Shown here in pieces: positions 2 through 25,103 of a stretch of 64,000 nt of DNA; positions within the stretch are counted from its first letter, which is position 1; every line of letters begins with the position of its first letter. A program made the position numbers and the translations under genes. The stretch spans positions 112,840 through 176,839 of the IMG/VR virus record IMGVR_UViG_3300031760_000002. One strand, given 5' to 3'. The notes under the pieces were generated by a model, which made no database searches, was not told the origin of the DNA, and saw only the letters and a list, made by a program, of their open reading frames with translations. The DNA comes from a virus. Taxonomy: Duplodnaviria > Caudoviricetes.

Positions 2-3000
2 ATCGTCCCTCTTCTGGCCGCGGAACGTGGTTATGCCCCTCGACGCCTCCTCGATCCTCTTGTCGACGTCTATCTTGGACAGCGCGTCCTTCAAAGCCTG
101 GCCGCCGGTCTTGCCGTCGAGCTTCTCACGACCGGACAGTATGTCCTCCATCCTTGACGTGGTCAGGCCGAGCACCCTCCTGACAGGCTCCTCCATTATC
201 GGGTTCGGAACAGGTTCCGGAAGCTCTATCATGGACCATTGGTTTCCGGCCATACCGCCGGTCTTGCCAAGATCGAACAAGCCTCCCTTTACCGGCTCGA
301 AGTCGGAATCAACCATGTCGGAGGACGATATGACACGTCCTCCGGCCATCTTCTCGACATCCTTGTCGGTCTGCGGCATTATCCGGGTTATCGACCCTTT
401 TTCAGTGACATTTATGCCGCCAGCCCTCAACGTGTTCAGGAACTTGTTGTATATGAACGGCACATCGGGCTCCGGCGTCGGAAGCCCCAGCTGCAGCGCC
501 CTCCAATAATCGTCGTTCCTGGTGCCGCGTATGATCTGGGTGTCTTTTATCACCTCCGGCACGTTGTGCGCAAGCATTCCCCACAAGTCCATGCCCGAGC
601 TCTTCTTGGCGCCCTCAAAGCCTCCCTTCGCCGGCTGTTCGTCCTGCGTATAGGCGCCGTCTGCCCCTCGGGCCGACGCCTTCTTCTCGGACAGGTGGTG
701 GAACGCATGCATGTAGATCCATCCGTCGCCGACGTTCTTGATTGTCTTCCCGGACACGGGATCGAACACGTCTGCTGACTCCTTGACACCGGCTTTGTCC
801 ATCTGCGCCTTCGTCCACCTGTACCACCCTTCCGGCGGAGGAAGCTGGGGGATCCGTATCTGCTTTCCGGTGGCCTTCGCCACCTTTCCGAGGGAAATCT
901 CCATGAGCTGGTTTGGCGCCGTCCTCGACAGGAATCCCATCGGGTTGACGAGGACGTCGTACGGTTCGTTCGTGACGGCGTCCCTCGGCATCTTGTCCAT
1001 CGGTATGATGGTGCCGACCACCCCCTTCAGACCGGAGAACGGAGACAGCTTGTCGCCCACCCTAACGGGGGGCTGCGCATGCACGTTCACCTTCGCTCCA
1101 GACGACGTCTTGACAGCGTCGACGACCGTGCCCTCGTAGTCATGCTCCCAGGTCTCCGACCTGTCGGTATAAGAATTGCGAAGCGCCTTGGACAGCTTTC
1201 CAAGCGCCTTGTCGGACGATGTGAGTACCTTTGGCCCGAGCGACAACACGATAGGATCGCCCCTGTGCAGCACGGTCCCCGGCTTGACGATTCCGTTTTC
1301 GTCCAAGGTTGCTATCTGGTCCTTGGTGAACTTTGACGGGAACGCTGATATGTACCTGTTCCTGCCGAGCTGCACTCCGTTCCTGGCCTCGTGGTCGAAA
1401 CTGTACAGCCTGTCCGTGGCGAGCTTCTTCGCCGCGTCCTCGCTGATCGTCCACGCGTCCTCGTAGCTCATGCCGTTCCACGGAAGTATGGCGGCCCTGA
1501 GGTTTTGGCCCATATTCAGTGCCCCGGTCTTCGCGTCCGTGTAGTTGGAATGCGCTATCATGTCGCCGGGCTTCACGCTTTGCCCCTCCTTGACGGACGG
1601 GAAATAGCTTATTGCGGACAGCCTGTTGAACGGTACGTTCTTGGTAAGCTCGACCTTGACGGTCTTGCCGTCGTCGCCCTTGATCGTAACCGTATCGTCG
1701 TCAACCTTCGTGACAACTCCGGAAACGTCGGACTTTAGCGTACCGATTTTCCTGCCGTAGTATTCGGACCACGTCGTCTTTCCGTCAGGCATCAGCGAGT
1801 CGACCAACGGAACCTCTCCGTTCTTCTGCGGAAGGTACTGCGACCAGAACTTCGACCCGTAGAACTGCCTCGTGGACTGGACTCCGGTCGGCATGATGTT
1901 CATGTTCGTGTTCGAGGTTATCATATGGCCGTACGACGGAACGGTGTACCGCACCTCGCTTCGCTTCACCCTCTGCGGTATGCCGTCCTTCATCGCAATG
2001 ACGTACGGCTTTGTCATGTCCTGCCCCGGAAAGGCCACAAGCCCGTCCGACGCAGTCGCTATGTCGACGTATGTAAGCTTCCCGGTTCTGTTGTCTATGA
2101 ACTCGCCGTACAGCTTGTTGTCCTTGCCAAGGAACGTGTTGTAAGCGGCACGGACGTCTACACCCACTTTTTCCGACTCGGGACCCGAGTTCATGTCGAC
2201 GAACCCCAAGTAGTCCCCCTGGACGTCGCGCGCCTCCATCGTGACCGCCTCCGGAGACCCTATGCCTCCCAGTCCGAACTTGGATATCCTGGACATCTGC
2301 TCCAACGTGGAAAGCGGGTTCGCCTCCTCGCCGGGCATGGCGAGCCCAGATCCGTTTATGATCGTATCGACCCACGGGTTAAGGGCGTTCCTCTGGATGG
2401 ATTTAAGATTTCCGTTCCTCCTGGCCTTGTACAGAAGCGTATTGGCCAGGCGTCCGGCGTTCTTCTCGATGCGTTCCTTGAAATAGTCCTCGACGCCGTA
2501 GAACTTGGAAAACCTGGGGCTGTCCCTGTTGTCGGCCTTCTCATCGCCCCTGGAGACGTTCAGAAGCTTCTGCGAGGCCCTGAGGAGGAGCTCCGGCGTA
2601 ACATGGTCGACGCCACGGAGGCCCATGGTCCTCTCGACGACCTCCGGATCCACCTCGTATCCGGCGATGGCGTCGCGAACGAACTGGATCTTGTCATCCT
2701 GCGTGGCGGCCGGATTCGACTTGTACCCGGCCATCCTGGAATAAAGCTTGTTCCACGCCTGAGGGTCCGCCTTTGCGGAGTTTGCCGCGGCAACGTCCGC
2801 GCCCCAGTATTTGACAATGCTCTTGTCGTCTACCCCAAGCCCGCGCAAAACCTGGTACAGCGGTATCTGCCCCTGTCCGGTCTGCAGCGACATGACGCCG
2901 GTCTCCGGGTTCAGCCCGAAATGGAACGCGTGCCCTGTGCCCGGCCTGATGTTGAACTGCGCCTCGTATTCGCCGTTGGACTTCCGCCTTGCATAGACGC

Positions 3001-3370
3001 CAGGACGAAGCCTTGACTGCGAAATGACCGTGTACTCGGACCCGTTGTTTATAATCGTTCCGCGGTCGGTCCAGTACGGAACCTGCATGACGGAATCCTT
3101 GCGCTGGTCCAGCACCTTCCCGGTCTTCTTGTCGGTGAGCCTCCAGGTGCCGACCAGGTTTGTCCTTAGATTCCTGTTCCTCAGGATGGCGTCCTTCTGC
3201 TGCTTCAGCGTGAACTCCTGCGGACCGTCGTATGCGATGTCCACAAGCTCCAGCCTGTAGTTGTCGTCCTCGACTGGAAAACGCTTCTGCATCGCGGAAA
3301 GAACATTGTCGTAAATGTTCCTTCTGGCCGATTTTGCATCGTCGAACGCCCTGAGACCGTCTGGAATCAT
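2..3370 (-). CDS. rpoBC: Phage multisubunit DNA-directed RNA polymerase, beta subunit fused in frame to the beta-prime N-terminus (runs off the left edge)
   Basis: Absent from the ORF track because it has no stop in the window. ATG at 3370 overlaps the upstream TAA. Manual translation gives RpoB motifs in order: VPYWTDRGTIINNGSEYTVISQSRLRPG, KLGLGGIG..EARDVQGDYLGFVD, GQNLRAAILPWNGMSYEDA, VGDKLSPFSGLKGVV, DVLVNPMGFLSR, YMHAFHHLSEKKASAR, QPAKGG, FLNTLRAGGINV. RpoC-like FEPVKGGLFD..WSMIELPEPVPNP follows. Frame checked at 3370, ~2230, ~1040, ~400 and ~10. Confidence 0.93.
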   Translation of the reverse strand, partial: MIPDGLRAFDDAKSARRNIYDNVLSAMQKRFPVEDDNYRLELVDIAYDGPQEFTLKQQKDAILRNRNLRTNLVGTWRLTDKKTGKVLDQRKDSVMQVPYWTDRGTIINNGSEYTVISQSRLRPGVYARRKSNGEYEAQFNIRPGTGHAFHFGLNPETGVMSLQTGQGQIPLYQVLRGLGVDDKSIVKYWGADVAAANSAKADPQAWNKLYSRMAGYKSNPAATQDDKIQFVRDAIAGYEVDPEVVERTMGLRGVDHVTPELLLRASQKLLNVSRGDEKADNRDSPRFSKFYGVEDYFKERIEKNAGRLANTLLYKARRNGNLKSIQRNALNPWVDTIINGSGLAMPGEEANPLSTLEQMSRISKFGLGGIGSPEAVTMEARDVQGDYLGFVDMNSGPESEKVGVDVRAAYNTFLGKDNKLYGEFIDNRTGKLTYVDIATASDGLVAFPGQDMTKPYVIAMKDGIPQRVKRSEVRYTVPSYGHMITSNTNMNIMPTGVQSTRQFYGSKFWSQYLPQKNGEVPLVDSLMPDGKTTWSEYYGRKIGTLKSDVSGVVTKVDDDTVTIKGDDGKTVKVELTKNVPFNRLSAISYFPSVKEGQSVKPGDMIAHSNYTDAKTGALNMGQNLRAAILPWNGMSYEDAWTISEDAAKKLATDRLYSFDHEARNGVQLGRNRYISAFPSKFTKDQIATLDENGIVKPGTVLHRGDPIVLSLGPKVLTSSDKALGKLSKALRNSYTDRSETWEHDYEGTVVDAVKTSSGAKVNVHAQPPVRVGDKLSPFSGLKGVVGTIIPMDKMPRDAVTNEPYDVLVNPMGFLSRTAPNQLMEISLGKVAKATGKQIRIPQLPPPEGWYRWTKAQMDKAGVKESADVFDPVSGKTIKNVGDGWIYMHAFHHLSEKKASARGADGAYTQDEQPAKGGFEGAKKSSGMDLWGMLAHNVPEVIKDTQIIRGTRNDDYWRALQLGLPTPEPDVPFIYNKFLNTLRAGGINVTEKGSITRIMPQTDKDVEKMAGGRVISSSDMVDSDFEPVKGGLFDLGKTGGMAGNQWSMIELPEPVPNPIMEEPVRRVLGLTTSRMEDILSGREKLDGKTGGQALKDALSKIDVDKRIEEASRGITTFRGQKRDD

Positions 3371-4098
3371 TACATGTTCCTCTGGTAGGATCCCGTCTGG
3401 TAGTTCCAGCCATACCTAGGCATGGCCTCCATATACTGTCTTTTCTCGGCGTAGCTTCCTGGCGCGGCCTTTGCATCCGGGTTGAACTGCTGCTGCTGTC
3501 TATAATCGTACAGCTGGCCTCGGAGATAATTGCCGCGTTCGGCCGGAGAAAGCCTGTCCCAGTCGCTCCTGCCCATGTACGCCTCGAGATTGTTGAAATT
3601 GGCATCGTTGTACGCTGCCCGCATTCCCGCCCTGGTAAGGACCGTCTTGCCGACCGGAAGTCCCGTTGCGGCTTGAAGACCGAACCTGCCGGCCCCGTAT
3701 ACCGCCCTTCCGAACCGTGTCGCGTTCAATGCATTTTTGGCGGCGATCGCATTTTTTCCGACCCTGGTCGCCGCCAACGCGCCCTTGGTTCCGGCCAGCG
3801 CACTCCTTATCGCCGTTCCGCCTATTCCGAAAGACAGCAGATCGGCTATGCCGCTTCCTATGCCAAGGCCAAGATTGCCGAGGCCGGACCATATATGCCC
3901 GTTTGCAAGAGACTTTATGCCATCGCCTATAGACAACGCAGAACCGAGTATCGGGGTTGCGTACATTGCGGTCTGGCCGAGTGCGCCTCCAAGACTCTTT
4001 GCTGCCGGAAGAACGGTATCGGCCTCCTTTCGGAGACCGGCCGTCTTCACGATGTAAGAGTCTATCTTTCTTTCAAGCGCGCATGTATTCACCGTCAA
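3370..4098 (-). CDS. Gly/Ala-rich putative virion internal protein with K-x-A motifs
   Basis: 242 aa; N-terminal VKTA and RKEA followed by glycine-zipper-like hydrophobic segments; coupled to both neighbours. Confidence 0.7.
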   Translation of the reverse strand: MTVNTCALERKIDSYIVKTAGLRKEADTVLPAAKSLGGALGQTAMYATPILGSALSIGDGIKSLANGHIWSGLGNLGLGIGSGIADLLSFGIGGTAIRSALAGTKGALAATRVGKNAIAAKNALNATRFGRAVYGAGRFGLQAATGLPVGKTVLTRAGMRAAYNDANFNNLEAYMGRSDWDRLSPAERGNYLRGQLYDYRQQQQFNPDAKAAPGSYAEKRQYMEAMPRYGWNYQTGSYQRNM

Positions 4099-5009
4099 CC
4101 CCCGTTTTCAGAAAGATACTCGTTAAGGGCCTGCCGCATAAGATCCCCCCTCTGCTGCGGCGTCATGGAATTCCAGTCGCCATGGCCTTGCGCCGACTTC
4201 GCGTCATTGGTGATCTTTTCGAAGTTGTTCGGATCGACCTTTTCCGGAATTATATACGGCGATGCAATGGACGCGGCCATATCGGCAGCTATAAGCTTTC
4301 CGCTGTTCCTGGCGGCCCAGCCTATCGGCCCTCCCATGGTCCTCGCACGTTCAAACGGACGTACGACGCCGTTGAACACGCCGCCCGGGAAATGGCGGAG
4401 GAACGGCGTGAACAACGCCGCCCTGCCGAAGTTTACGGCGGCACTTCCGTAATTTCCCTCTCGAATGTTGTCTATGCCCTCCCCGACATCGCCGGCTATG
4501 AACACCGGATCGGCCATGGCCAGGGCCTTGGTACCATACCTCTTCAGCATGGACGCGGATGCAAGCGATCTGTTTCCGAACGCCTGCTGAACGTCCCTCA
4601 ACGTCGAAAGGTTCCTCTCTGCTACGGCGCGATCAGCTCCAGAAAGGCCGCGTGCCCTGCGCTCTCCGGCCTCTATGGCCTTTTCGACCATGTCCTGGCG
4701 ACTCCTGTTGAGGTACGCCGTTTCACCGCCCTTAAGTTCCTTCCTAAGGCCCTTCAGCTCTGAAAACCGGCCTTGATCCATCCTTGGGCCGGCGGACGCG
4801 AACTCGTGCTCAAGCTCCGCAAGCCTCCTGGATTTCATGGCAGCGTCGGCCCTGCTGGCCCTGAACTGGGACGCGAGCTCGGGACTTTCCCTCAGGGCCG
4901 CGCGTATCTTCGACGCATTGGCACTGGACCTCGACAGCCTTCCAGACCTCGAGAAGATCTTCAATATCCTTGAGCCAAGGGACGAAAATGGCAATGCTTC
5001 CTTATACAT
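4095..5009 (-). CDS. Putative virion internal protein (begins MYKEA)
   Basis: 304 aa helical, Ala/Gly/Arg-rich protein; overlaps neighbours. Confidence 0.7.
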   Translation of the reverse strand: MYKEALPFSSLGSRILKIFSRSGRLSRSSANASKIRAALRESPELASQFRASRADAAMKSRRLAELEHEFASAGPRMDQGRFSELKGLRKELKGGETAYLNRSRQDMVEKAIEAGERRARGLSGADRAVAERNLSTLRDVQQAFGNRSLASASMLKRYGTKALAMADPVFIAGDVGEGIDNIREGNYGSAAVNFGRAALFTPFLRHFPGGVFNGVVRPFERARTMGGPIGWAARNSGKLIAADMAASIASPYIIPEKVDPNNFEKITNDAKSAQGHGDWNSMTPQQRGDLMRQALNEYLSENGG

Positions 5010-6723
5010 TTGCGGCCTCTAACGCCTTTGCCAGGCGATCCCTGTACTCTTCCGGTATGACGCCGTCCAGATCTTCGTCGAATTCCACAACAACCTTTTT
5101 GTCTTCCTGCGGCTTGCCCTTTCTCCTTGGCATATCTTCCTTGATCCGGTTTATGGCGTCTATGACTTCCTTGTTGGAATTGTCCTTCACCGTTTTCAGC
5201 CTGGAGGACAGGGCCAGCAGGTCGTTCAACGACGCCGTCTTCTGTACGCCGGAACCGGGAAACGCGGACCCGTCAAGCCTGGTCCAGCCGCCTTTGGAAA
5301 AATCGTATCTTGACAGCATGTCGTTTATCGCCTCCGGGCTTACGCCAAGTTCGCTAAGCATGCTGCCAGCTACCCTTTTCCTTCCGGATGCCGTGTTATT
5401 GGCGTACCACCCGACGATTCGCTTGACTAGAGGTCCTATCAACGGAATGGACGCAAGGGTGGAAAGAAACCCGCTGCCGTTGTGCAGGCCGGCTATCCGC
5501 TCGTCCGCCTTCATCCTGACGAGATCCCTGTTGCGCTCCTGCCCAAGAAGCTCGAACCATTCCTCCGGATTGTTGCGCGCGAGCTGCATGACATGCGACT
5601 TTACAGCGTCCTGGTACATCTCGGGGTTCTTCTGGTACGCGTGCAGGGACGGCCCGTACTTGAACAGGGTCGACATGGGCATCGAAAAATCGCTGTCGTC
5701 CCTCTTCAGGCCCTGTGTCTTCGCATATTGGTCCAGGATGTACTGCTTTCCGCCCTTCGCGTTCGCGATATCGTTCAGGAACCCGTAGTCTATGTCGCTA
5801 CCGGCCATCTTGCTCATCGGAAGCGAGTCCGCTATGCAGTCGCGAAGTATTCCGACCGTGGCCAGCATCTGCTCCGGCTCGATTTCGCGTTCGAACGACC
5901 CGGACTTGAACAGGATCCTCGTCTTCTGCTCCGGCTCCTCCTCCTTCTTGGAGAAACGCTCCTCCAGCAGCTTCTTGACGATGTAGGCCGCGCCGCCCGT
6001 GGCCAGTATGTACGAGGCAAGGGCCGCACCGCCTATGTTCCTCGTCGTCCTTGAAATACCGCCAGGAAGGGACACTATGTCCGTGATTACGCCAGCGGAC
6101 TTCTCGAACTCCTCCACCGAATCGTCCCCGAACATGAAAAGATCGGAAAACGCCTCCGCCGCCTTCAGCCTTCCGCCGCTGAGAAGCTGCACGTATTCGC
6201 GCTGCGCCGCGTCGACCTGCTTCTTCAGCCTCTTCTGCTCGAGTTTTTCGGCTATTTTCGATACGACGACGTACCCGGCGACACCGCCTCCGATGGCGGA
6301 CAGTATGTTGCCCGCCTGGTCCATCGGGCCCGACAGGAACGCCCTTTTCTCGGAGCCCATCGTGGAGTCAAGGCTCGTGTACTGGCCGTTCGTCTTCCTG
6401 GGCTGCCCGAACACCGGCCAGATCTCGCCGTCGACGGAGGATTCAACCTTGCATACCTTGTCGTGGCTGTCGCAGGATTCCTGGCAGGATCCGTCCTCGG
6501 CCGTCTTCCTGTTCTTGCCGATCGTGAGAACGATCGTATTCGGACCGATCTTGTCCGATACGCGCTCCTCCTCCTTCTTCTTCTGCCTCCTGGCTTCCGC
6601 AACCTGCCTTATCAGCGCAACCAGGGCAGCCGCACCGGCGCCTACCGCAAACGCGTCGGCACCATGGTACAGCATGCTCCCCATGTTCTGGCCCTCTTTA
6701 CGCATTGTCGCCATCCTTTCCAT
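5002..6723 (-). CDS. Large putative virion internal/ejection protein with multiple K-x-A motifs and hydrophobic Gly-rich helices
   Basis: 573 aa; RKTA, EKRA, LKAA, EKSA, SKMA and QKTA spaced through the chain; at least three hydrophobic Gly/Ala segments. Confidence 0.75.
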   Translation of the reverse strand: MERMATMRKEGQNMGSMLYHGADAFAVGAGAAALVALIRQVAEARRQKKKEEERVSDKIGPNTIVLTIGKNRKTAEDGSCQESCDSHDKVCKVESSVDGEIWPVFGQPRKTNGQYTSLDSTMGSEKRAFLSGPMDQAGNILSAIGGGVAGYVVVSKIAEKLEQKRLKKQVDAAQREYVQLLSGGRLKAAEAFSDLFMFGDDSVEEFEKSAGVITDIVSLPGGISRTTRNIGGAALASYILATGGAAYIVKKLLEERFSKKEEEPEQKTRILFKSGSFEREIEPEQMLATVGILRDCIADSLPMSKMAGSDIDYGFLNDIANAKGGKQYILDQYAKTQGLKRDDSDFSMPMSTLFKYGPSLHAYQKNPEMYQDAVKSHVMQLARNNPEEWFELLGQERNRDLVRMKADERIAGLHNGSGFLSTLASIPLIGPLVKRIVGWYANNTASGRKRVAGSMLSELGVSPEAINDMLSRYDFSKGGWTRLDGSAFPGSGVQKTASLNDLLALSSRLKTVKDNSNKEVIDAINRIKEDMPRRKGKPQEDKKVVVEFDEDLDGVIPEEYRDRLAKALEAANV

Positions 6724-13487: not shown

Positions 13488-16439
13488 CTAGACTGAGATT
13501 GTTTCGGAGTTCGCCGGCCTGTACTCCGTCCTGAACGTCTGTCCGACCCTGGAGTCCGAGATCGTCTTGTCCGAGACCCCGCTGCATACGACGACGTTCT
13601 GGAAGTACGCCGAGGAGGTCGTCGTTCCGGTTGGGTTCAGATACACGTTTTTGACACCAGGCTCCATCTTGATCCACCTACAGTACGACTTTGTAGCGGA
13701 TGATGTTCCGAACGCGTTGGAGGAGCATTCGCCCATGAACGTGTTGGCGTAACAGCTGCTGCCGAATGTGTTGGAGTAACAGCTGCTGCCGAACGTGTTG
13801 TAGTTGCAGTCGCTGCCGAACGTGTTGGAGGAGCAGTAGCTCCCGAACGTGTTGGAGGAGCAGTAGCCCCCGAACGTGTTGTAGTTGCAGCCGCTCCCGA
13901 ACGTGTTGGAGGAGCAGTTGTTATCGAACGTGTTGGAGGAGCAGTCGCTGCCGAACGTGTTGGAGTAGCATTCGCTGCCGAACGTGTTGGATAAGCAGTT
14001 GTTATCGAACGTGTTGGAGTAGCATTCGCTGCCGAACGTGTTGGATGAGCAGCTGCCGCCTAACGTGTTGGATGAGCAGTTGCTACCGAACGTGTTGGAT
14101 GAGCAGATGCCGCCTAACGTGTTGGATGAGCAGTCGCTTCCGAACGTGTTGTAGGAGCAGTTGCCGCCTAACGTGTTGGAGTAACAATTGATCTCGAACG
14201 TGTTATAGGAGCAGGAGCTATCGAACGTGCTGTAGGAGCAGGAGCCCCCGAACGTGTTTGAGGAGCAGGAGCTCCCGAACGTGTTGTAGTTGCAATAGCT
14301 ACCGAACGTGTTGGAGGAGCAGTTGCTACCGAACGTGTTGTAGTTGCAATAGCTACCGAACGTGTTGGAGGAGCAGTCGCTGCCGAACGTGTTGGAGTAG
14401 CAGTCGCTGCCGAACGTGTTGGAGTAGCAGTTGTTATCGAACGTGTTGGAGTTGCAGCCGCTCCCGATAAACACTATGCCGTTCAACTTCGGCTTAACAG
14501 AATAGTGCCAAGGTCCAATCTTGTTTCCGTACACAGTACTCGATGCGGTCAACGACATGTCGACCGCATTGCCGGACACGATGTCGGAAAACGTGTAGTG
14601 CCACTGGCTCGTTGATGCGTCGACGATCAGCACCGTGCCGTTGACCGATATGTTCGAGCCCTTGTAGGCGAAGCATTTACCTGTTTCCGAATACGAGAAC
14701 GAACTTACGAGCGATGAAACGTCACTTATCTTCGTGCTCGTGACATTTGTTATGGCCCATCGCTTGAACTGGATCCCCTTGAAGTCGTACGGGCAATCGT
14801 TGCCGAACTCGTCTATCAGCCTGTAGACGACGCCTTTTCCGTTCGTGGAATCCGCCCATGCGAACCTGTTCGTGTCGTTGTCCAGGCAATACTTCAGCTC
14901 CCAAGCCTCGAGATTGCAGCCGTCGAAGTACGTGTCTCCGGCATGCCGAATCGCATACGCGTTCTCGTTGAGCTTGTTGGTCGAGTCGGCTCTGACGATG
15001 ATGTCGAAAGGATGGTTTGCAGACTGTGTGTCTGCCTGAACGGTTGTGGCCACATAGTCCGTAATTCGATACTGCTGCCCAGGAACTAGCGTCCCACCGT
15101 CGCGCAACGCCTTTAGCTCAGACCAGGTCTTCTCGACGACCGCCTGTACAAACGACTTGTCGAGGTTCGCAGACGGAATCTTCCCGTTTCCGTCCACGAT
15201 TACCGTATCTCTGTACCTGAACGTATTAGACGTGTTAAGGTTCCCAAGCGTGCTCTCGCCAAGCTGAATGCTGTTCGTACCGGCTGTATCAACGCCGGCC
15301 CTCTTACCTATCGCGATAGACCCAGCCGCAAGCGACTTGGCGAATGTTCCAATAGCTATAGAACTCTCGCCACCGGAGTTTGTTGTATTGCTGTTGTCAC
15401 CCGCGGAAATCGCTATGGACTTAATCCCGGCGGCCCGGGCTTTGTTGCCTATGCCTACAGAAAACGGGGAATTCGCCGTGGCATCATTTCCGGCCGCAAT
15501 TGAGCTACCGCTCTTCCATCGGTTGAACTCGGCCTCCGAGGTGATGTACCCGGCGTCGTTCGTGAACGCGGACACGTTCGTAGGAACCGTCGGAATGTCG
15601 CTCTTGAGCGCGTAGTCACCGGCAGGCTGAAGCGGTTTGTCCGACTGCGAACCAAGTTTGTATGAAGAGCTAAGTTTAGTTCTAGTGGCTGAAAATTCAA
15701 CGCCAGGAGCGCTGTCCATGCCCTGTGCGACTATGGAAGTTCGTGTATCCGTTGGATAATAGAACTCCGCCAATGAGACACTGGGGGCGGATGAAGGATA
15801 GAACTGATAAAAAGTTTTACCAGTCGGGTCAGTTGTAAATCTAACCTTCGCCTCAGTTGTTACCTCGCCATTTGCCCTGACAATCCACTCACTGAATTCA
15901 GCTATCTCCGTCAGCGTCGCATCGGCCTTGGTGGCTAGGTTGTCCAGGACCGTCTGATCGATCTTGGCGGCGGTGACGGCGCCGTCTGGAATCGATATCT
16001 TCGCGTCGTCGTCGATTGAGATCCCCTGCCCTGGCGTGAGCTTCTTCTGGTACGCGGCCTGCGCCTCATCCTTCGTGAGGTACATGTCCATGGACGGGCC
16101 TAGCGGATCCCATACGGGGTCGTCGTTGCTGGTGTGGCCGGCGCATGCCACGTTCATGCCGTCCTCGACGACATTGTACACGTCGCCGACTTCGACTCCG
16201 TCCTTCGGCAGGTCTTCGTACGTAGGTACGGACCCCTTCCACCTGAGTACCTTCCCGAGCCCTGACAGGGCCTCGTCTATCGCGGACCTTATGCCGTCCG
16301 ACGTAACCGGGTTCGACGACCCGGAGACGGGCTCATCGTCGAACGTAAGCAGGTCCTGCTTGGCGGACAGCAGCCCGTCGATCTCCTCGATCGAGTAGAT
16401 CTTCTTTGCAAAGTCGACGAGTCCGAGCTTCTTGGGCAT
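13488..16439 (-). CDS. Tail fibre / receptor-binding protein with YadA-like head repeats and a 9-aa repeat solenoid
   Basis: 983 aa; FDDEPVSGSSNPVTSDGI linker, SIAIG-type repeats, and 28 tandem xxxCxxNTF-type units. Confidence 0.75.
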   Translation of the reverse strand: MPKKLGLVDFAKKIYSIEEIDGLLSAKQDLLTFDDEPVSGSSNPVTSDGIRSAIDEALSGLGKVLRWKGSVPTYEDLPKDGVEVGDVYNVVEDGMNVACAGHTSNDDPVWDPLGPSMDMYLTKDEAQAAYQKKLTPGQGISIDDDAKISIPDGAVTAAKIDQTVLDNLATKADATLTEIAEFSEWIVRANGEVTTEAKVRFTTDPTGKTFYQFYPSSAPSVSLAEFYYPTDTRTSIVAQGMDSAPGVEFSATRTKLSSSYKLGSQSDKPLQPAGDYALKSDIPTVPTNVSAFTNDAGYITSEAEFNRWKSGSSIAAGNDATANSPFSVGIGNKARAAGIKSIAISAGDNSNTTNSGGESSIAIGTFAKSLAAGSIAIGKRAGVDTAGTNSIQLGESTLGNLNTSNTFRYRDTVIVDGNGKIPSANLDKSFVQAVVEKTWSELKALRDGGTLVPGQQYRITDYVATTVQADTQSANHPFDIIVRADSTNKLNENAYAIRHAGDTYFDGCNLEAWELKYCLDNDTNRFAWADSTNGKGVVYRLIDEFGNDCPYDFKGIQFKRWAITNVTSTKISDVSSLVSSFSYSETGKCFAYKGSNISVNGTVLIVDASTSQWHYTFSDIVSGNAVDMSLTASSTVYGNKIGPWHYSVKPKLNGIVFIGSGCNSNTFDNNCYSNTFGSDCYSNTFGSDCSSNTFGSYCNYNTFGSNCSSNTFGSYCNYNTFGSSCSSNTFGGSCSYSTFDSSCSYNTFEINCYSNTLGGNCSYNTFGSDCSSNTLGGICSSNTFGSNCSSNTLGGSCSSNTFGSECYSNTFDNNCLSNTFGSECYSNTFGSDCSSNTFDNNCSSNTFGSGCNYNTFGGYCSSNTFGSYCSSNTFGSDCNYNTFGSSCYSNTFGSSCYANTFMGECSSNAFGTSSATKSYCRWIKMEPGVKNVYLNPTGTTTSSAYFQNVVVCSGVSDKTISDSRVGQTFRTEYRPANSETISV
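13708..14466 (-). repeat. In-frame 27-bp tandem repeat, 28 copies (GSxCxSNTF)
   Basis: Counted from the translation; plus-strand core CCGAACGTGTTGGAG recurs every 27 nt. Confidence 0.95.
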
Positions 16440-22113: not shown

Positions 22114-22335
22114 TCAAAGGATGAAAAACAGCCAAGACAGCATAAGAAATCCCTCCAGCCACAAAATGGACCTCATCATCGACTCGACGACGAAGTCGTA
22201 CCAGTCGTACCGGACGCCCGGTTTCCTGGGAGGATCCCTGGAAACGGCCAGTACGACGAACGACGCCGCCATCACCGACGCGGATACGGACAGCCCTCCG
22301 TAAAGCAAATACCGTATGAAATCCTGTATTGACAT
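22114..22335 (-). CDS. Small two-helix membrane protein (holin-like)
   Basis: Start re-called at 22335 (TAATG overlap with the portal stop); two hydrophobic segments in 73 aa. Confidence 0.55.
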   Translation of the reverse strand: MSIQDFIRYLLYGGLSVSASVMAASFVVLAVSRDPPRKPGVRYDWYDFVVESMMRSILWLEGFLMLSWLFFIL

Positions 22336-24998
22336 TAACCGCCCTGCTGCATCTGCTGGATCATCATTTGCTGTCCTTGCGACGACAGCTGCTGCCTCTG
22401 GTCTTGAAGCTGCCCCTTCACCATGGCCCACAGCGTCGGGTTGGTCTGCTTGATTGACGCGAGGGTCTGCCTTGTATGGGCCGGATTGTTCTCGGCGATC
22501 AGCTGCTGCGCGATCTGCTCGGCCTGCTGCGCAACGTCGCCGGGGGTGGCGCCTACCTGGCCGCCGGGACCGTTCATGCCGCTCCCGCCTCCTCCGCCAC
22601 CGCCTCCGCCGCCTCCCATGGCGCCGTTGGCCTGCTGGGCCTGGGCGTCCGCCATGGCCTTCTCCTGCATCTTCTGGACGTCCTGCTGCTCCTTGATGAT
22701 CCTGCGCTGCTCGTCGAGGTAGTCGATGCCGATCGTCCTGTACGCGGTCTGCTTCGAGATGTCCTGCCCTGCGGCGGCCTGCATCTGGATGCCCTTCTTC
22801 TCGAGGTCGTCGGCGAGCGTGATCGGGGTAAGATGGACTTCGACCGGATCCCACTGCATGTAGTTGGAGATCTCGTCGGTGATCCACTGCAGGATGTTGT
22901 TTATGCCGGAAACGAACGGGTTCCATTCGCGTTCGAACAGCCTGAGCGCAACCGGCGCGGCCTGCAGCGACAGGGTGCCGGCGAACAGCTCCTGGGGGAA
23001 TCCAAGCGAGTTCAGGAGCTCCTGGGTCGCCTCCTGGATCGACTCCTTTGGCGCAAGCTGCTTTGCCTCTCCTCCGATCAGCTCGTACCCGATGGCCCAC
23101 GGTGCCACTTCGATGGAGGTCATGTTCATACGCTTCTTCTCCACCATGGACGACATGGCGGCTATGAAGGTCTGCATGGAAATCTGGGTGAGCGGATCCT
23201 GGCCTCCCGGCGCGTTTCCCTGCGGGTACAGGATGCGGAACGGCACGATGAAGTCCAACGCAATCGCTTCGTCGTAACGACGCATGAGCTGGATGTAGTA
23301 TGCCAGCTTGAAGTAGGGAAGGATCGGCGGGATGCCCCAGCCCTTGATCGGAAGACCGGCGAAAACGGCGTCCCTGAGATGGTATATCTTGTCCGGATCG
23401 AACTCGAAGAGGTGCTCCTCCCCGTCCCCCGTGTGGTCGTCGTTAAGGCAGGTCTCTATGAATCCCCAGGACACGTTGTTGATGTAGAACGGGTCTCCCT
23501 TCCTGACCCTTTCGACGAACTTGGGATCCATCTTGTAGTAGTACTTCAGCTCTCCGGTGATGTCGTTCACCTTCAGCTTTATCCTTTTAGGATCCCAACG
23601 GTTTATCCTTATCTTGGAAGTATCCCTTGAACGCCTGTCCACGCGCTTGAACGGAACCTTGCCATGCTTGCACTTCGGGCATTCGCAAATGAATTCGCCT
23701 TTGGTGGCCGAGAACTCGTATTTTATCTTGGATATATGCACCTGTGCACCGCAGCCGGGGCACTGCAGGTACCTCTCGAACGGAAGATACACGGAGACGA
23801 AGGAGTTTCCGTAGCAGTTTCCCGTCACGAGCCCTCCTTCGAGGGCGAACGTATGCGTTGCCGGTTCTACGCAGCAGAACACCTCCTCCGTACGGTACCT
23901 GCTTCCGATCCTGGTCGGCGAGGTGGCTATCCTGGCCTTCACGGTCTTGGACGTCCTGTACAGGTCCTTCTGGTCCTGGCACAGGAAATCGTCCTCGAGA
24001 AGGCTTGAAATGCGGAACGGCATGTAGTACCGTTCGTAGTCGGACCATATCCTGCGCTTCACGATCGACTTTGGCACAAGCCCCAGCTGTATCATGCCCT
24101 CCCGCACCGCGGAAAGCTTCTTCCTGTCGTTGTGGGTAAGGAAGAACGAATTGGCCTTCGGCTGGAAGAATCCCGATACCGAGGCCATTCCGCCGAAGAA
24201 TCCGTACCAATACGACCGGGACGCGTTCTTTGGCACGTCCTTCATGGAGGCGTCGACCTCCAGACCGTATGCGGACTTGTACTCCTCAAGGAACCTGGAT
24301 TCGTAATAAAGCGGCTTCTCCCTGAGGCCGAAGACTATCCCGTGCAGCCCTCCGGCCACGTAGTCCCGGTTCTTTTCCGGCCTTGGAACCATGACGACCG
24401 GTATCCGGCTGCTCTTCTTGAGCTCGTCCGTCCTGCACTGGACGTAGGCGTGCTCCTCCTTGCCGTTGCACTTCCTGTACCACCTGTGGTCGGCCGTGAC
24501 CCTGCACTCCGTGCCGTTCCCGAAATGGACGTCGACCGTCTTCTGCCTGCCGAACGACTTGAACGACGCGACATGCCACTTTCCGTCTATCGACAGCACC
24601 TTGGCCCTCTTTCCGGCCAGGTCCCTTATCTTGAACACGCCCTTGTCCGTGACAACCCTTGTGCTTCCGCCGAAGCAGAAATAGTCCTTGCCTATGTCCT
24701 GCAGCCTCTGGATGATGTTGATGTCCTTGTCGAACACCTTCTCGTACTTCTCGCGTACGTCGTCGGCCACGTCGTTGATCTCGACATCGGTGAGAAAGTA
24801 CGATACGACCCTGTTTATGACGGCCATGAACGGCGGTATGGTGAGCATCAGGTACTCGGACCACGTGAACGCGTCGTTGATGTTCGTCGGTATGTACGCC
24901 GACGCGATGTCCATGAACGGGTTCGGATACTTGTAGGCGTCCGGAAACCTGCCCCCGTCCCACGGTGTGCCTGAAAACGCGGATGTATTCTGTGTCAT
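22335..24998 (-). CDS. Portal protein containing an intein
   Basis: After removing the intein: KDYFCYGNSFV, DKIYHLR..GWGIPPI and ELLNSLGFPQELF match portal-family patterns; Gln/Gly-rich C-terminal tail. Confidence 0.75.
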   Translation of the reverse strand: MTQNTSAFSGTPWDGGRFPDAYKYPNPFMDIASAYIPTNINDAFTWSEYLMLTIPPFMAVINRVVSYFLTDVEINDVADDVREKYEKVFDKDINIIQRLQDIGKDYFCFGGSTRVVTDKGVFKIRDLAGKRAKVLSIDGKWHVASFKSFGRQKTVDVHFGNGTECRVTADHRWYRKCNGKEEHAYVQCRTDELKKSSRIPVVMVPRPEKNRDYVAGGLHGIVFGLREKPLYYESRFLEEYKSAYGLEVDASMKDVPKNASRSYWYGFFGGMASVSGFFQPKANSFFLTHNDRKKLSAVREGMIQLGLVPKSIVKRRIWSDYERYYMPFRISSLLEDDFLCQDQKDLYRTSKTVKARIATSPTRIGSRYRTEEVFCCVEPATHTFALEGGLVTGNCYGNSFVSVYLPFERYLQCPGCGAQVHISKIKYEFSATKGEFICECPKCKHGKVPFKRVDRRSRDTSKIRINRWDPKRIKLKVNDITGELKYYYKMDPKFVERVRKGDPFYINNVSWGFIETCLNDDHTGDGEEHLFEFDPDKIYHLRDAVFAGLPIKGWGIPPILPYFKLAYYIQLMRRYDEAIALDFIVPFRILYPQGNAPGGQDPLTQISMQTFIAAMSSMVEKKRMNMTSIEVAPWAIGYELIGGEAKQLAPKESIQEATQELLNSLGFPQELFAGTLSLQAAPVALRLFEREWNPFVSGINNILQWITDEISNYMQWDPVEVHLTPITLADDLEKKGIQMQAAAGQDISKQTAYRTIGIDYLDEQRRIIKEQQDVQKMQEKAMADAQAQQANGAMGGGGGGGGGGGSGMNGPGGQVGATPGDVAQQAEQIAQQLIAENNPAHTRQTLASIKQTNPTLWAMVKGQLQDQRQQLSSQGQQMMIQQMQQGG
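23817..24677 (-). mobile_element. Intein (287 aa) with degenerate LAGLIDADG-like endonuclease region
   Basis: Block A CFGGSTRVVT, block B VTADHRW, blocks F/G EEVFCCVEPATHTFALEGGLVTGN followed by +1 Cys; YVAGGLHGIVFG and YGFFGGMASVSG helices. Confidence 0.9.
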
Positions 24999-25103
24999 GT
25001 CGCTATGAAGATGGTTGCGGGTCCAGGAATCGAACCTGGTTCGAGGGATTATGAATCCCACGTGTTTCCGTTACACCAACCCGCGGTTTATGGAATTTGC
25101 ACC

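Follow-up and report, generated by a model that had tools for sequence, protein, structure and literature searches.

An RNA polymerase beta subunit fused in frame to the N-terminal part of beta-prime, with a separate beta-prime-C chain and a sigma-70-family factor, in a large uncultured phage

The DNA analyzed here (the window) is a stretch of 64,000 nucleotides, bases 112840-176839 of the IMG/VR record IMGVR_UViG_3300031760_000002, which is 176,839 bp long, classed as 'linear' and rated complete by CheckV. At the start of the window lies an RNA polymerase gene in which the beta subunit reads without a stop into beta-prime. An earlier interpretation made from the letters alone (the sequence-only reading) had proposed both the phage origin of the record and the in-frame fusion, and both are borne out. 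The gene is on the minus strand at window positions 2-3370, with its ATG at 3370 and its frame open throughout; it continues past the window start, so that the window holds the first 1123 of 1456 codons, and in the whole record the complete open reading frame (ORF) occupies G000:C1:111839-116209 (L002:11839-16209(-) in the locus numbering). Pfam places Rpb2_6 at residues 549-916 (9.5e-40) and Rpb1_1 and Rpb1_2 at residues 1131-1386 of the same protein, and the strings quoted in the sequence-only reading are present.

The beta module comprises residues 1-988 (window 407-3370, minus strand), and is recognized by Pfam Rpb2_2, Rpb2_3 and Rpb2_6 and by a profile built from an alignment of 55 family members. 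Against Salmonella RpoB (1342 aa), this profile aligns in blocks 50-228, 420-933, 1049-1147 and 1179-1340, and then continues into RpoC 160-551; by this alignment beta is whole down to its last residues and ends directly before the junction. The module is compact, the E. coli/enterobacterial lineage-specific inserts SI1 and SI2 being absent. The beta-prime-N module, of which residues 989-1123 lie in the window (2-406, minus strand), spans the clamp, the clamp helices and the Mg-binding DFDGD barrel.

The junction (residues 977-1033, window 272-442, minus strand) consists of the beta C-terminal strand, a connector and the beta-prime N-terminal region as far as GGLFD. The strand is FLNTLRAGGINV (residues 977-988, window 442-407), downstream of which the frame reads TEKGSITRIMPQTDKDVEKMAGGRV...KGGLFD...WSMIELPEPVPNP; the five-residue connector TEKGS leads into 40 residues colinear with beta-prime ~19-58. 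The beta-prime N-terminal zinc ribbon (~51 residues with four Cys in E. coli) is deleted, leaving 19 residues and zero Cys, and the sole Cys of the 1456-aa chain are residues 1272 and 1354. In the displayed sequences of the 55-member alignment, the junction block has indels of only 1-5 residues and several conserved residues. The ratio of nonsynonymous to synonymous substitution rates (dN/dS), calculated against an 89% identical relative, is 0.067 overall and 0.032 at the junction, which by this measure is under purifying selection. An AlphaFold2 model of residues 700-1456 (mean predicted local distance difference test score, pLDDT, 84.4; predicted template modeling score 0.71) has an ordered junction, its 10-residue blocks scoring 72-93 and mostly ~88-93, and the top Foldseek matches of the model are cyanobacterial gamma and bacterial beta-prime.

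The catalytic motifs are retained in both modules. The beta-prime loop, for which the sequence-only reading had proposed to search the extended ORF, is found as TADFDGD at residues 1362-1368 (minus strand, beyond the window edge) by direct reading of the ORF, and D.DGD is invariant in the family alignment. In beta, the lysines of the GDK...KG motif are conserved at 95% or more; both are present in GDKLSPFSGLKG (residues 772-783, window 1022-1057, minus strand), where the usual R-H of GDKxxxRHGxKG is replaced, as had been noticed. This R-H pair varies in the family: it is canonical in P0267 (GDKITGRHGNKG), and the Salmonella phage Arash keeps the His (GLHGNKG), which the studied phage does not. 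On the alignment, loss of both residues is a lineage-specific substitution of the studied phage's clade and no family-wide trait. The conserved catalytic residues and the purifying selection speak for an enzyme that would be catalytically competent.

The ORF ends ~88 residues past DFDGD, at a point equivalent to E. coli/Salmonella beta-prime ~551-571. Its stop shares one base with the ATG of the next gene (TAATG), which encodes a 619-aa protein with Pfam Rpb1_5 (6e-11) and is translationally coupled to the fused gene. Residues 129-331 of this second chain align to beta-prime 718-938, covering the bridge helix, the second zinc site (four Cys at residues 225, 282, 289 and 292) and the trigger loop with its M-K-H, while residues 388-486 align to beta-prime 1188-1285, the insert SI3 being absent. 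The N-terminus of the second chain, MATTVGQ, corresponds to TTVGR at beta-prime 572, which places the cut at ~beta-prime 551-571, after the catalytic barrel. Since beta-prime-C is encoded as a separate gene, the enzyme is a two-chain one, with both catalytic barrels on the first chain and ~2075 residues in total; of the earlier description as a single-chain two-barrel polymerase, the two barrels on one chain stand, and the single chain does not. Programmed frameshifting or read-through at the split was considered and rejected, because in most relatives the two genes are 0.9-4.8 kb apart, and for the same reason the split is taken as real. The one-base overlap is found in the studied phage and its closest relatives; in most two-chain IMG/VR relatives (loci L066-L128), the fused gene and that for beta-prime-C are separated by ~0.9-1.0 kb, about the length of one gene.

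The architecture recurs in a large family. The exact protein is present on two independently assembled contigs, and the 89% identical relative, with the same 1456 + 619 aa layout, occurs on 8 contigs, the four places shown being four different assemblies. The junction is spanned by one open tblastn segment in 20 other loci, and Rpb2_6 and Rpb1_2 are on one protein in all 120 best homologues. The best 150 representatives of clusters at 50% identity all match at E < 1e-140, and in most of them the query (the C-terminal end of beta plus beta-prime-N) sits at the C-terminal end of a protein of more than 1400 aa, a minority being shorter. At least 588 IMG/VR contigs encode a relative, the large ones being mostly 160-230 kb, and the family numbers more than 150 clusters at 50% identity. 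Of 102 related loci, 94 stop at the same split site and four read on in frame into beta-prime-C. The metagenomic single-chain relatives P0423-P0431 (~1994-2066 aa) match both chains colinearly from end to end (30-33% identity), the four Cys included; unlike the studied phage, they have no stop at the split and keep the whole of beta-prime on one chain. Long relatives (2000-3000 aa) were examined as candidate hidden single-chain enzymes, and this was rejected: the beta-prime-C region is found in 0 of 268, so that their extra length consists of inteins and added domains. Inteins or LAGLIDADG endonucleases lie inside either chain in many relatives (P0021, P0392-P0420), in P0021 just past the catalytic barrel, and in the Vibrio phages D181 and D148 (H3, H4) the polymerase gene is broken by a homing endonuclease gene.

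The divergent lineage suggested by the sequence-only reading also finds support. Identity to bacterial enzymes is ~30%, and in a quick beta-prime-N tree all fused and single-chain family members form one clade (Shimodaira-Hasegawa-like approximate likelihood ratio test 99), separate from a small sample of seven bacteria and from two phage proteins in which beta-prime is unsplit, those of Rhizobium phage Y65 and Vibrio phage Va2; the tree does not settle the order of the basal branches. In a sister clade (P0062, P0086; ~60% identity), an inorganic pyrophosphatase domain (PF18823, residues 37-169) stands at the start of the fused chain and is followed in some members by LysM and phage tail lysozyme domains (residues 217-380) before the beta module. 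The pyrophosphatase domain is not found in the studied genome.

The nearest annotated relatives are Salmonella phage Arash (OQ632216; PMC10585845) and the Vibrio phages D69, D148 and D181. Arash Gp206 (1525 aa) is the same beta::beta-prime-N fusion, with a single aligned segment that covers 99% of the query at 30% identity. Arash also shares with the studied phage the split site, a separate beta-prime-C (Gp216, 606 aa) and a homologous sigma factor (Gp10), whereas its two polymerase genes are 4.8 kb apart and those of the studied phage overlap by one base. Only 11 of the 225 ORFs of the studied phage have homologues in Arash, the polymerase being the best conserved among them. The Arash paper names Gp206 and Gp216 'beta' and 'beta-prime', the fusion being unmentioned (PMC10585845).

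The subunit complement of the studied phage is small. Its genome has one Rpb2_6 locus and one Rpb1_2 locus, and hence no second polymerase; the two predicted chains together are the phage's only polymerase core. Neither alpha (PF01000) nor omega (PF01192) is detected anywhere in the complete record, by searches that score in all 14 control genomes. A sigma-70-family factor is encoded at G000:C1:77912-78772(-), with Sigma70_r3 (49.5 bits) and Sigma70_r4 (28.5 bits) both over the Pfam cut-offs and a further match to SigA regions 2-3. It is homologous to Arash Gp10, and sigma homologues occur on contigs equal in length to seven contigs carrying the fused polymerase. A complex prediction for beta-prime-N with this factor scores 0.70, the best of 3 controls scoring 0.00; the 0.70 mark is reached by 58 of 80 solved complexes and by 2 of 110 mismatched pairs. 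Agreement between runs is at least 30% of contacts, the partner pLDDT is 64, and the predicted interface pairs residues 1159-1203 (the clamp helices) with sigma residues 51-89 (sigma region 2). Because sigma-core complexes have been solved many times over, this prediction is a likeness to solved holoenzymes and not binding.

The reading that best accounts for these results, with a probability of about 0.7, is a sigma-dependent two-chain phage polymerase, probably carried in the virion, made late and delivered with the DNA. The first chain would bring both catalytic barrels, and the second the bridge helix and trigger loop. The covalent beta/beta-prime link may stand in for the alpha-dimer assembly platform, and E. 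coli subunits are known to work when tethered. The phage sigma factor would dock on the clamp helices and steer the core to phage promoters. Core and sigma would be synthesized late, packaged and delivered with the DNA, allowing early transcription without need of the host polymerase, as suggested by the Arash virion proteome. A stronger form, in which the particle contains a self-sufficient holoenzyme (the two-chain core with its own sigma-70-type factor, without alpha or omega, the link replacing the alpha platform), is held tentatively, at somewhat short of even odds.

Three observations suggest packaging in the virion: what the Arash proteome contains, where the genes lie, and which domains the sister-clade chains carry. 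In Arash virions, Gp206 tops the spectral counts at 100% coverage, and Gp216 and the sigma factor Gp10 are detected too (PMC10585845). In the studied phage, the polymerase genes are the final two of an overlapping run of minus-strand genes that is flanked by homologues of the structural proteins and portal of Arash. The portal-protein homologue (908 aa, window 22335-25061, minus strand; tblastn to Arash gp204, E 1e-70) marks the virion-gene block containing the polymerase genes. The rival that fares best accepts the same two-chain enzyme and supposes that it is left out of the particle, being made during infection and serving only middle or late genes after the host polymerase has started the infection. 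The Arash authors themselves concede that highly expressed enzymes might be carried over into purified particles (PMC10585845), and the encoding of a single polymerase set would suit such a role. Against this stand the rank and full coverage of Gp206 with Gp216 and sigma alongside it (PMC10585845), the position of the genes inside the virion-gene block, and the LysM and tail-lysozyme domains on sister-clade chains, and we consider this alternative unlikely.

Less probable again is that the phage sigma redirects the host polymerase while the phage core starts, in the manner of phiKZ-type enzymes, without sigma. The general view in the review literature is that phage sigma factors act on the host core, and the complex prediction cannot separate a phage core from a host core; the phage chain nevertheless conserves the clamp helices that form the predicted interface, contigs across the family carry sigma together with the polymerase, and sigma is co-packaged with the polymerase in Arash (PMC10585845). 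An origin of the fusion in faulty assembly, in a frameshift error or in the mis-joining of a bacterial rpoBC piece to a phage contig is extremely improbable given the same ORF in independent assemblies and hundreds of relatives, peptides covering 100% of the Arash fusion protein (PMC10585845), and a chain that is ~30% identical to bacterial enzymes and falls in its own clade.

Several points weigh against the packaged, sigma-dependent enzyme that we favor. Its packaging leans on one relative of ~30% identity that shares 11 of 225 ORFs, and the phage sigma could work with the host polymerase, either in place of the phage core or in addition to it. This lineage has other residues in place of the R-H by the active-site lysines and of the His that corresponds to E. 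coli beta H1237. The searches for alpha and omega used a single Pfam model for each subunit, and a very divergent substitute would escape them. A crude k-mer enrichment over 69 upstream gaps recovers Shine-Dalgarno sequences only and no promoter motif.

Immediately upstream of the fused gene are three genes of 242, 304 and 573 aa (window 3370-6723, minus strand), whose stops and starts overlap one another and the polymerase gene. Pfam and PHROG searches of ten neighboring genes give nothing usable, and the three upstream genes have no family above threshold. The portal homologue is longer than its Arash counterpart (908 vs 579 aa), and its tblastn match falls in two pieces ~855 bp apart (window ~23811-24665) within one open frame; the extra segment has the look of an intein or of a domain inserted in frame, and Pfam finds nothing. 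A 983-aa protein at window 13488-16439 (minus strand) has a YadA-head repeat match of 24.6 bits, just below the 25-bit Pfam cut-off, and may be an adhesin-like fiber. A search for the T4-type capsid protein (Gp23, PF07068) gives no match in the genome and none in any control genome either.

An identical polymerase gene is present on a 188,259-bp contig of the ENA assembly ERZ27256908, compared with 176,839 bp for the studied record; the record may be ~11 kb short, or a terminal repeat may account for the extra length of the longer contig. In the search for a clue to the host, a scan of bacterial and archaeal genomes with a single protein gives no matches. Family contigs of up to 199 kb (loci L016-L034) have been binned in metagenome-assembled genomes labeled Gemmataceae, Nanopelagicales, Aquaspirillum, Moraxellaceae, Thermoguttaceae, Methylococcales and others. 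This placement across unrelated phyla is probably mis-binning and no host signal, and those genomes probably hold phage DNA.

Knowledge of multisubunit polymerases encoded by phages comes mainly from the phiKZ-like jumbo phages. The family described here is common and stands out as bacterial-like, minimal (two chains, without alpha, omega or lineage-specific inserts) and paired with a sigma-70 factor. It offers a natural experiment on the need for the alpha platform and for omega, and a compact candidate for structural and in vitro work, and it may explain the host-polymerase independence of a large group of ~160-230-kb phages. The cultured member Arash, whose host is Salmonella Typhimurium, makes these ideas directly testable. 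If the packaged holoenzyme is real, it would be a third and very widespread route to host-independent early transcription, beside the N4-type single-subunit and the phiKZ-type split virion polymerases, and the first virion polymerase to use a canonical sigma factor.

The fused polymerases of Helicobacter and Wolbachia, to which the sequence-only reading had likened this gene, are cellular enzymes in which rpoB and rpoC are fused with a complete beta-prime, and alpha2 and omega are kept. They likewise join the beta C-terminus in frame to the beta-prime N-terminus, and the comparison holds as an analogy; it does not extend to membership, since whole beta-prime is not on the phage chain, which is cut past the barrel, with no alpha or omega detectable. 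A parallel to this cut is the division of beta-prime into gamma (RpoC1) and beta-prime (RpoC2) in cyanobacteria and plastids, which likewise falls after the DFDGD barrel, and ranking the Foldseek matches by target coverage puts gamma chains first. The phage cut is ~65 residues earlier than the cyanobacterial gamma end (extrapolated from phmmer coordinates), and gamma is unfused to beta.

The mReC phages are uncultured and large, and their beta and beta-prime are bacterial-like and branch deeply (Weinheimer and Aylward 2020, PMC7481178). A link to them was considered and rejected on gene architecture: the mReC contigs examined have a separate beta (~1000-1380 aa) and an unsplit beta-prime (~900-1010 aa), some with two sets and none with the 1456 + 619 aa layout (PMC7481178). 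Among the sources consulted, a jumbo-phage polymerase review, a comparative jumbo-phage paper, a 2026 review and the mReC paper, together with literature searches, give no description of the fused two-chain architecture; as far as could be found, an arrangement common to hundreds of phages is apparently in no published description. The studied phage is a further member of this large, essentially undescribed family of two-chain, sigma-paired phage polymerases.

The phiKZ/AR9-type polymerases resemble that of the studied phage in being phage-encoded, without alpha or omega, and in having beta-prime split after the barrel (PMC7598289). In these phages, both beta and beta-prime are split, giving four or five chains in two paralogous sets with no recognizable sigma, and one form of the polymerase is packaged in the virion (PMC7598289). 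The phiKZ/AR9-type enzymes are far more divergent, whereas the studied phage has beta whole and fused, a single set of chains and a sigma-70-family factor.

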